Source of the DNA: a virus
Taxonomy: Duplodnaviria; Heunggongvirae; Uroviricota; Caudoviricetes
DNA: 64,000 nucleotides
Virus record (IMG/VR): IMGVR_UViG_2565956713_000001
Reading direction: 5' to 3' (one strand)
Shown one piece after another: positions 23,812-25,290 of the stretch. Both the position numbers and the translations under genes were made by a program. The notes under the pieces are model-generated. The model did no database searches. It was not told the DNA's origin and was given only the letters and a program-made list of their open reading frames with translations. Numbering within the stretch: position 1 is the first letter of the stretch; each line of letters opens with the position of its first letter.

Positions 23812-24070
23812 ATGTTGACTATGCGCGAAGGTTAATGTGAATAGTTGACTATGCGCGATGTGACTACAGTCAAAAGTTGACTGTAGTCGATTTAACTCCA
23901 CCAAAGATCGACTATGTAAGATATTGTCGGGAGAAACGTTGACTATACGCGATGAAATGACCCTAAAAGCCATCTCAATAGCGACTTGCAGAATATTGAC
24001 GCCAGCAAAAATCCACCAGCATCAACGAATGTCGCCTATAGTCAACTTCTCGCTATCGCATATAGTCAAT
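23812..24070. repeat. incA-like iteron array downstream of repA
   Basis: At least 7 copies of a ~15-bp TTGACTAT(G/A)CGCGA-type repeat in both orientations. Confidence 0.6.
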
Positions 24071-24071
24071 A

Positions 24072-24956
24072 TTATGGATTGCGCTTATGGATCTGGAAGC
24101 CGATTTTTCTGCCGTTTTTTATCTCTGAAAATTTAAGATATTCAATAGCTTCCAAATCTTTCATGGCTTTTCTGATAACGCTATTTTGCACGCTAACGGA
24201 TGATTTGAGATTAAGCCTTGCTCTAAGGCGCTCAATGCTGACAGGTGCCGGGTTGGCGGGTAGAGCCTCAAAGAATGTATACAGCACCTTGGCCGTCTCT
24301 TTGCGCCCGAGCTTATCCAGCATCTTCAGCTTCAGGATTCGCTTATAGTCAACATAGTAAAGTTCAGATAGCTGTTTTTGCGGCTGGATCTCGATAACAT
24401 CAAGCTCGGTATTCAGGCTGCTATATGCCAACAAGTTGACGTTAATGTTATTGAGATGACCTTTTGCCGCCGGGAAGCGGAATTTGACAACTGTCTGCTG
24501 AATGCGTGTCAGAGAGTCATCAATACTTTTACGGAACGCCTTTGAAAGGCGCTTACGTGGATAGCCGCATCGATCGGCAAACTCGGAGAATGGCAGGGTG
24601 ATTATGCCGTCATCATCAGGAGCATAGTCAAACAACGCGGAGGTTATGCCCACCCACACCTTAAAATCAGTATCCATATCCAGGCGTGGACCATGAATTT
24701 CAATTCCCTCATAGCCTTCCTGCTCAACAATTTTGAGGCTTGATAGTTCTTCGGTTGCGTTCGTTGTGTTTGTTGTAACTGACGATCCGCGACGTAGCGC
24801 CACATTGGTAGATTTTAAGGTTGGCACAAACACACCTAAGCGCAACAAAGCTATGGGTTGTATAGTGCTGTTGTTATTGGGCTTCAGGCTGTGGATTTCT
24901 CCTGTATTTCCTGCAACTTCTTCAACGCTAAGGAAGCCTTTACTTTCTTCCGGCAT
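24072..24956 (-). CDS. repA: plasmid replication initiator RepA (P1/F RepE-like family)
   Basis: 294 aa; conserved motifs PIALLRLGVFVP and GPRLDMDTDFK; flanked on both sides by iterons. Confidence 0.8.
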   Translation of the reverse strand: MPEESKGFLSVEEVAGNTGEIHSLKPNNNSTIQPIALLRLGVFVPTLKSTNVALRRGSSVTTNTTNATEELSSLKIVEQEGYEGIEIHGPRLDMDTDFKVWVGITSALFDYAPDDDGIITLPFSEFADRCGYPRKRLSKAFRKSIDDSLTRIQQTVVKFRFPAAKGHLNNINVNLLAYSSLNTELDVIEIQPQKQLSELYYVDYKRILKLKMLDKLGRKETAKVLYTFFEALPANPAPVSIERLRARLNLKSSVSVQNSVIRKAMKDLEAIEYLKFSEIKNGRKIGFQIHKRNP

Positions 24957-25004
24957 CGTGGTTTCTCCATGTGTGGCGCGGCCTGGCGTTAATTTAGATG
25001 ACTG

Positions 25005-25249
25005 TTATCAACAGCTGTGAATATTCAGGCTCTAAAATCGCGTACAGTCAACGTTTCTGTCGCGTATAGTCAACAATAAATCGCGTGCAGTCAACATAAA
25101 ATCGCACACAGTCAACATAAAATCGCGTATAGTCAATGTTGATCCCGTTTCAGGCCACGAACGGCGCGGCTTACAGCGATCCGGGATCTTCTTTGGATCT
25201 TCCTAGGTTCTCTTTGGGATCTGTTTATTGGATCTATGCTGTGGATAAG
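25005..25249. other. plasmid replication origin (oriR-like): DnaA boxes, five iterons, GATC cluster
   Basis: Five direct repeats of TCGCGT(A/G)(C/T)AGTCAAC at 21-22 bp spacing (25038-25137); DnaA-box-like TTATCAACA (25005) and TGTGGATAA (25241); five GATC sites in 25141-25215. Confidence 0.7.
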
Positions 25250-25290
25250 TTGAATAAACCGGCCAACATAGCCGGTTGGAAGGAAGGGTA

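Follow-up and report, generated by a model that had tools for sequence, protein, structure and literature searches.

A P1-like phage-plasmid with a p0111-type replicon beside a P1-type partition system

P1-like phage-plasmids spread resistance genes, and the replicon of P1 itself is the textbook model of iteron control. In P1 the centromere parS and its binding protein ParB also constitute incB, the partition-incompatibility determinant. Within P1 subgroup 1, one position is taken up by either of two replicase families, typed IncY and p0111, and it has been suggested that the two are compatible in replication (PMC7969092). The RepA of phage SJ46 is only 42% identical to that of P1 (PMC5241659). 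In JL22 a p0111 gene, repA′, together with an unknown ORF (gp57), replaces the IncY repA, and 24 of 55 elements were typed as p0111 in the same study (PMC9603915); among Salmonella phage-plasmids there are 132 of type p0111 against 94 of type IncY, and 17 switches of type were inferred on the tree (PMC11165635). The alternation of IncY with p0111, and the inference of replication compatibility, are thus already in print in these papers, having first appeared in 2017–2022. The share of P1-like elements in nature that have a second replicon, about half, matters for typing and surveillance and is likewise established. The identification made below is correct but ordinary, the p0111 replicon of P1-like phage-plasmids having been described before.

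The window, by which is meant the whole 64-kb stretch of DNA that was analysed, is part of a P1-like phage-plasmid (Punavirus) of the RCS47/SJ46/JL22 type, and its prophage replicon belongs to the known p0111 type, not to the IncY type of P1; we put the probability of this reading at about 0.93. Within positions 17000–32000 of the window, the backbone outside the replicon cassette is 96.5–98.7% identical to P1, and this near-identical, collinear backbone places the element in P1 subgroup 1. The P1-like plasmid pATCC10729_02 is collinear with most of positions 1–62148, at 96.6–99.1% identity in the matching segments; the segments that do not match are 32495–33592 and a part lying within 49418–54633. 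The window also carries genes for tRNA-Asn, tRNA-Thr and tRNA-Met, as P1-like elements do.

The 1.6-kb replicon region is 97.3–99.3% identical at the nucleotide level to RCS47, SJ46, JL22, phi456 and other phage records, and the same region occurs in 556 PLSDB plasmids at identities of up to 99.9%. These plasmids are mostly non-mobilizable and come from E. coli and Salmonella, and a size of about 90–100 kb is typical among the matches listed. In one PLSDB plasmid whose typing was examined, the p0111-type replicon is the sole replicon listed. The MOB-suite name for the same replicon in PLSDB is 'IncHI1B', which appears to be a difference of labelling. Assignment of the window to p0111 is indirect, in that its RepA is 99.7% identical to the RepA of JL22, whose gene was typed as p0111 (PMC9603915). 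The p0111 module is carried by 415 of 5,426 complete E. coli genomes. No D6-type relative was found among the phage records.

The partition region, on the parA side of the replicon, comprises the following features.

20500–20582, minus strand: parS centromere of P1 type, from alignment to the annotated P1 parS
20587–21588, minus strand: parB, 333 aa (Pfam PF08775), 100% identical to P1 ParB and 43% to P7 ParB
21605–22801, minus strand: parA, 398 aa (Pfam HTH_54, PF18607, and AAA_31), 99.7% identical to P1 ParA and 58% to P7 ParA
22799–22903, minus strand: par operator and promoter, with the −10 element of Ppar at 22856–22861 and the −35 element at 22879–22884, with coordinates that differ throughout by 16587 from those of the annotated P1 features

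A promoter scan returns Ppar as TGTACA-17-TATTAT at 22884–22856. Boxes A1–A4 and B1–B2 of parS are all those of P1, with box B reading TCGCCA, unlike the corresponding GTCCCG and TTCCCA of P7. The centromere departs from that of P1 by substitutions at two positions of the IHF site and at three in the interval that separates this site from box A2. A type Ia ParABS system of P1 specificity is defined by a ParA that joins an N-terminal HTH to a Walker ATPase, by a P1-type ParB and by P1 parS boxes, and all of these are present. The preliminary description of this DNA, which had called the par cassette P1-type, is borne out for every component.

The boundaries of the replicon are sharp. Over positions 17000–22903, which include gp22, gp23, parS, parB, parA and the par operator and promoter, the window aligns to P1 without gaps at 98.7% identity. 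At 22903, just upstream of the −35 element of Ppar, identity drops from about 98% to none, and homology at the P1 level returns near 25250. Between these points lies a cassette that shows no detectable nucleotide homology to P1 except for a 59-bp patch. It replaces the incA-repA-oriR region of P1 and is inserted between an intact P1 par promoter and upfA, with the following features.

22904–25250, unstranded: replacement cassette of about 2.35 kb, a complete p0111-type replicon plus one extra ORF, delimited from blastn breakpoints, the DnaA/GATC block and the end of homology with L005
22948–22962, minus strand: hairpin resembling an intrinsic terminator (GCCCC-loop-GGGGC and a T run), 3′ of the T5orf172 ORF
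22970–23779, minus strand: T5orf172 ORF, 269 aa (Pfam PF10544, phrog_2876), with an N-terminal T5orf172 domain of the GIY-YIG superfamily
23814–24070, unstranded: control array resembling P1 incA, with iterons in both orientations
24072–24956, minus strand: repA, 294 aa, initiator of the Rep_3/RepFIB family, from sequence, Pfam and fold
24339–24353, plus strand: iteron-like 15-mer within repA, at codons 202–206 (VDYKR), in the orientation of the origin copies and with one mismatch to the consensus
25005–25024, unstranded: two inverted DnaA-box-like 9-mers, TTATCAACA and ATATTCACA, at 25005–25013 and 25016–25024, each with a single mismatch, in the interval that separates the iterons from the start of repA
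25038–25137, plus strand: five direct origin iterons upstream of repA, starting at 25038, 25060, 25081, 25102 and 25123, with spacings of 22, 21, 21 and 21 bp
25141–25234, unstranded: six GATC (Dam) sites and a GC-rich spacer (GCCGCGCC), a block conserved across RepFIB-family origins
25240–25248, minus strand: DnaA box without mismatches (TTATCCACA), marking the outer end of the origin
25291–25683, minus strand: upfA, where the P1 backbone resumes

The cassette therefore holds the T5orf172 ORF, a control array of six or seven iterons, repA, the five origin iterons and a GATC/DnaA-box block of its own. Its right edge is placed at about 25249–25262, at the outer DnaA box, and homology with L005, an 85% variant that sits in a different, distant P1-like context, also ends at about 25248. 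A junction inside oriR was considered, since blastn homology to P1 resumes at 25163, within the origin, which would make the DnaA/Dam half of the origin common to P1, but it was rejected. The DnaA-box/GATC block (25138–25248) is only 66% identical to P1, and 73 and 63% identical to an IncFIB origin of Klebsiella and one of E. coli, respectively, whereas it is 85–95% identical to other p0111-type variants. The block is thus conserved across the family as a whole and belongs to the incoming replicon.

The RepA of the window is 100% identical to that of RCS47 and matches SJ46 RepA at the same 99.7% as it does JL22 RepA. It is 42.3% identical over 272 aa (E = 9e-71) to the RepA of P1, and equally to that of P7, the latter two being 100% identical to each other; its earlier placement in the P1 RepA family is therefore sound, as a homologue of low identity. 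The Pfam model Rep3_C is matched above its cut-off (27.3 against 21.1 bits), and Rep3_N falls just below (22.0 against 22.4). Searching the PDB by sequence with RepA yielded no significant match, and only the fold search was informative, retrieving initiators of plasmids and of chromosome II. An AlphaFold model (22 homologues, mean pLDDT 75) matches the folds of RctB domains 2–3, RepE, pi and TrfA with probabilities of 0.82–1.0 and the WH1 domain of pPS10 RepA with a TM score of 0.61, as would be predicted for a two-winged-helix initiator (WH1 plus WH2). Beyond the compact p0111 cluster, the nearest RepA proteins are those of the alleles L005, L010 and L016, at 84–90% identity. The next relatives, at 53–54%, are on large Proteus contigs, and these are followed by RepFIB-type proteins at 44–49%, including those of the SSU5 group; no intermediate between 54 and 84% identity was found among 5.8 billion proteins.

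The T5orf172 ORF, for which RefSeq has a shorter start, stands alongside the p0111 repA in 12 of 12 phage records. A homologue of its product with 44% identity is encoded at the same position in L016, a diverged P1-like element whose ParA, ParB and RepA are 89, 67 and 84% identical to those of the window, and among the 5.8 billion proteins searched it has hardly any further relatives. NCBIfam contains no model for either this protein or RepA.

The 64-kb window contains 12 matches to the repeat TCGCGTRYAGTCAAC at up to two mismatches, all of them within 23814–25137; dinucleotide-preserving shuffles gave 0.42 on average and at most 3. Five matches lie upstream of repA, six downstream and one inside the gene, and a degenerate copy is additional to this count. 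Read on the repA strand, the unit of the origin iterons is GTTGACTRYRYGCGATTTTAT, in which TTGACT and GCGA hardly change from copy to copy, unlike the variable RYRY in the centre. Downstream of repA, two copies of the control array keep the orientation of the origin (24056–24070 and 24032–24046), and the first of them ends one base short of the repA stop codon (24072–24074). Beyond a gap of 94 bp, four clear copies that point the other way follow at 23938, 23876, 23844 and 23814. The degenerate copy at 23907–23921 agrees at 9 of 15 positions and holds the 30–32 bp phase of these opposite-orientation copies. An array of this spacing and orientation is like the auxiliary incA array of P1 and is a candidate for control of the handcuffing type.

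For comparison with P1 the annotated record NC_005856 was used, with its 14 experimentally defined iterons and their consensus GATGTGTGCTGGAGGGAAA. This 19-bp iteron has no match in the 64-kb window at up to three mismatches; by its iterons, as by the low identity of its RepA, the replicon is not IncY. The preliminary description had reported five direct iterons at 21–22 bp, flanking DnaA boxes and a GATC cluster, all of which are confirmed. Its count of at least seven copies downstream of repA needs qualification, for six are clear and the seventh is decayed. It had also stated that the repeats differ from those of P1, and this was right: when iterons and RepA were checked for identity with their P1 counterparts, the former proved unrelated and the latter 42% identical. 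No published sequence or description of the p0111 iterons was found in the literature searched, and two of the papers on these elements, PMC9603915 and PMC11165635, do not mention iterons; the p0111 iteron sequences appear to be unpublished.

The origin as a whole has the arrangement expected of the Rep_3/RepFIB family, with phased direct repeats beside the rep gene, a putative opening region and DnaA boxes on both sides. In the variants L005 and L016 the DnaA box that corresponds to the 9-mers at 25005–25024 is a perfect TTATCCACA. The P1 counterparts of the GATC sites are annotated as Dam sites, and the cluster at 25141–25234 is likely to be the region of strand opening and sequestration. 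A consensus scan of the repA strand from the iterons to the ATG returned no sigma-70 promoter. As judged by eye, the hexamers that might serve as −10 elements 3′ of the iteron TTGACT are poor and lack conservation in L005, L010 and L016, and they were rejected.

The iteron-like 15-mer within repA has a chance expectation of about 3e-4 by our own estimate. Codons 202–206, which contain it, form the longest identical run in a three-way codon alignment of the window allele with those of L005 and L016, each about 85% identical to it as a protein, and about 0.4 such runs would be expected anywhere in repA. The coincidence points to constraint on the intragenic iteron at the level of DNA, and from these alignments the site looks to be so constrained.

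Two alternative accounts of the locus have to be weighed against the reading of it as an incoming replicon that carries the binding sites of its own initiator. Across relatives the iteron changes in step with RepA, being TTGACTATGTGC where RepA is 85% identical, GTTGACGCTAGA where it is 53% identical, GTCTAYTGTATGCGA in Klebsiella IncFIB and ATAAACTGTAGTCAG in E. coli IncFIB, and this co-variation of sequences supports the view that the repeats are the cognate sites of RepA. It might be supposed instead that they are sites for another protein, for example a host regulator or the adjacent T5orf172 protein, whose ORF is never separated from the cassette in P1-like elements, or that they have no function. 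Besides their tracking of RepA divergence, the repeats copy the experimentally defined iterons of P1 in number, phasing, orientation pattern and position. They also persist, with an 85%-identical RepA, in L005, where no T5orf172 gene is seen at the one place inspected, the corresponding position beside repA. It is scarcely credible, therefore, that they serve another protein or none.

The second account is that the region is P1's own replicon, diverged in place by vertical descent, with no replacement of a cassette. RepA is indeed a true homologue of P1 RepA, and the P1 architecture of DnaA box, GATC cluster, five iterons, repA and control array has been kept. The abrupt steps in identity, from flanks that are about 98% P1 to a cassette devoid of nucleotide homology but for the one patch, effectively refute such a history. 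The cassette moreover contains an extra ORF with its own terminator, its DnaA/GATC block is no closer to P1 than to Klebsiella IncFIB, L005 and L016 carry related RepA alleles, with iterons of the same family, in other backbones, and repeated switches of replicon are placed on the phage-plasmid tree (PMC11165635). Divergence in place is thus very improbable, and replacement of the P1 replicon by a p0111-type cassette is the reading adopted here.

By analogy with P1 and RepFIB, RepA monomers would bind the five helically phased iterons, and RepA, together with DnaA at the flanking boxes, would open the adjacent Dam-methylated region. Iteron-bound RepA may in turn repress repA; this is the least supported step of the scheme, because no convincing repA promoter could be located. 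The downstream array, again by analogy, would titrate RepA and handcuff the origin, and in this way copy number would be kept near one.

Because the iterons are unrelated to those of P1, replication control should not cross-react with that of P1 or P7. The different incompatibility specificity that the preliminary description proposed can thus hold for the replication determinants incA and incC only, and does not extend to incB, since parS and ParB are unchanged from P1. A stronger claim, implied by that description and by PMC7969092 and PMC11165635, is that the change of replicon renders the element fully compatible with P1/IncY prophages, so that both would be stable in one cell. In its favour, iterons and RepA are divergent enough that titration and handcuffing through incA/incC should not cross-react, and there are two complete E. 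coli genomes in which the types coexist on separate replicons. Against it stand the ParB identical to that of P1 and the full set of P1 parS boxes, that is, incB, and the rarity of co-carriage. Among the 5,426 complete E. coli genomes, the IncY module is found in 361, and a concatenated p0111 and IncY query retrieves 774 genomes and 777 records; it follows that no record contains both modules and that those two genomes are the only ones with both. Independence would predict about 27.6 (415 × 361 / 5426), and the observed number is no higher than that of same-type doubles, one genome having two IncY records and none two p0111 records. The deficit is suggestive, and fits a remaining exclusion through the shared par system, immunity or superinfection exclusion, but population structure confounds the comparison and no single cause can be assigned; shared C1 immunity, superinfection exclusion or sampling structure could also account for it. 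Full compatibility with P1 is accordingly doubtful, and we consider it unlikely.

Three things are added by this analysis to what has been published. The p0111 origin and control array are mapped at the level of single bases, and the map can be used in the construction of mini-replicons and incompatibility probes. The P1 centromere is found to be retained in a p0111-type element. Finally, the genome count, with 2 co-carriers where about 28 would be expected, casts doubt on the ready coexistence of IncY and p0111 elements that has been assumed in print. A broader proposal can be put forward only tentatively. It is possible that the p0111 unit is a self-contained, exchangeable cassette, in which RepA, its iterons and its DnaA/Dam block are linked to a nuclease-like T5orf172 ORF that evolves fast, and that it moves between P1-like backbones; that the nuclease-like protein may help to displace the IncY allele; that a functional intragenic iteron would add to the titration of RepA or to autoregulation; and that, with parS retained, the swap would alter replication control and yet leave the element open to exclusion by P1. 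Taken together, we would give this scheme rather poor odds.

The replicon of P1 and P7 (IncY) occupies the same genomic position, encodes a homologous RepA and has the same order of elements: DnaA box or boxes, five or six GATC sites, a GC-rich spacer, five direct iterons at about 21 bp, repA and a downstream array. In P1, too, that array has two orientations and copies about 31 bp apart, and reaches the repA stop codon. The differences lie in the details. RepA has 294 aa in the window and 286 in P1; the iteron is GTTGACTRYRYGCGA in the one and GATGTGTGCTGGAGGGAAA in the other, with no cross-matches; there are six or seven control iterons in place of the nine of incA; and one outer DnaA box stands where P1 has two in tandem. 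The window has in addition an extra ORF between the control array and Ppar and an iteron inside repA.

The RepFIB replicons, as found in pO157-like E. coli IncFIB plasmids, Klebsiella IncFIB(K) plasmids and phage-plasmids of the SSU5 group, encode RepA proteins that are 45–49% identical to that of the window and thus slightly closer to it than P1 RepA. They share the conserved DnaA-box/GATC block and have iterons with an ACTRTA..GCGA-like core; the Klebsiella repeat GTCTAYTGTATGCGA agrees with the window iteron at 11 of 15 positions, as counted by eye. Their iteron sequence and RepA clade are nevertheless distinct, and the context in the window is a P1 phage backbone with P1 par.

The closest systems are the p0111-type elements RCS47 (FO818745), SJ46 (KU760857), JL22 (ON018986) and pATCC10729_02, whose replicon is essentially the same element as that of the window. 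They have in common with it the T5orf172 ORF, the flanking parA and upfA genes and a P1-type par system, and their replicon regions, at 97.3–99.9% nucleotide identity and with RepA proteins 99.7–100% identical, differ from that of the window by point differences only.

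The block beside the iterons is common to the P1, p0111, E. coli IncFIB and Klebsiella IncFIB origins. In the window (25138–25248), in two further origins (L013 and L014), and in the origins of the relatives L005 and L016 described below, it comprises a DnaA box, five or six GATC sites, a GC-rich spacer and one further GATC; the order of these elements is conserved, and their sequence partly so. The iterons that adjoin this block are entirely different among the four origin types.

The window's own iteron family recurs in L016, a 95.7-kb Logan contig (ERR2144811) whose RepA, ParA and ParB are 84%, 89% and 67% identical to those of the window. 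L016 is a more distant P1-like phage-plasmid, in which the interval from ppfA to the origin, occupied by upfA in the window and in P1, has no called gene. A second relative, on a 91-kb contig of E. coli GCA_013513435.1 (L005/L006), encodes a RepA 85% identical to that of the window and carries iterons TTGACTATGTGC. Its gene order around repA differs from that of the window, and no par genes are adjacent to repA. Beside repA lie distant homologues of the gp22 tail-sheath gene and of one other gene of the P1 backbone (65–72% identical in nucleotides).

The partition cassette is of the P1 type. ParA and ParB of the window (20587–22801) are 99.7–100% identical to those of P1, as against 43–58% for P7, and 100% identical to those of RCS47 (L001, 1888–4102). 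Compared with P1, the parS site (20500–20582) carries five substitutions, of which two fall in the annotated IHF-binding site (TAACCAACTGTTT versus TAACTGACTGTTT) and none alters a ParB box. The par operon of OP279344.1 (L002, 2305–4472) shares only 64.5% nucleotide identity with this P1-type operon, and its gene lengths (parB, 966 bp; parA, 1206 bp) fit P7. Its RepA is 42% identical to that of the window, as is P1 RepA. The record carries the name “Escherichia phage P1 isolate del res del mod.”

Relative to pATCC10729_02, the closest plasmid, the window differs at 32495–33592, 49418–54633 and 62148–64000. The genes concerned include:

32746–33573, SPFH/Band-7 ORF
within the differing segments, Ead/Ea22-like and DUF551 ORFs
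62260–63821, Ash-family and ORF6N/KilAC antirepressor ORFs, after pacB

Two of these segments appear to correspond to variable regions 7 (tciA–tciC) and 8 (pmgT–humD) of P1-like elements (PMC9603915). Insertion of an antirepressor between pacB and c1 has been reported (PMC6906374).

The replicon cassette itself also contains:

22970–23779, T5orf172/GIY-YIG-superfamily ORF, 269 aa
23862–23887, iteron half-sites forming a perfect palindrome, GACTACAGTCAA aag TTGACTGTAGTC, inside the control array downstream of repA
24339–24353, iteron-like 15-mer TCGCTTATAGTCAAC, one mismatch, in origin orientation within the repA coding sequence

In phage records, p0111 repA and the T5orf172 ORF are invariably linked, and a homologue (44% identity) occupies the same position in L016 (6001–6936). 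The protein is a near-orphan outside these elements; one possibility is that it is a nuclease that aids spread of the cassette.

The 15-mer within repA is also present in L016. Its five codons, encoding VDYKR, form the longest stretch free of synonymous change among three repA alleles (about 85% protein identity to the RepA of the window), and this conservation in the sequences suggests that it may be a functional RepA site.

The palindrome in the control array resembles in form the inverted half-iteron operators to which Rep dimers bind in other replicons, although it is located away from the repA promoter.
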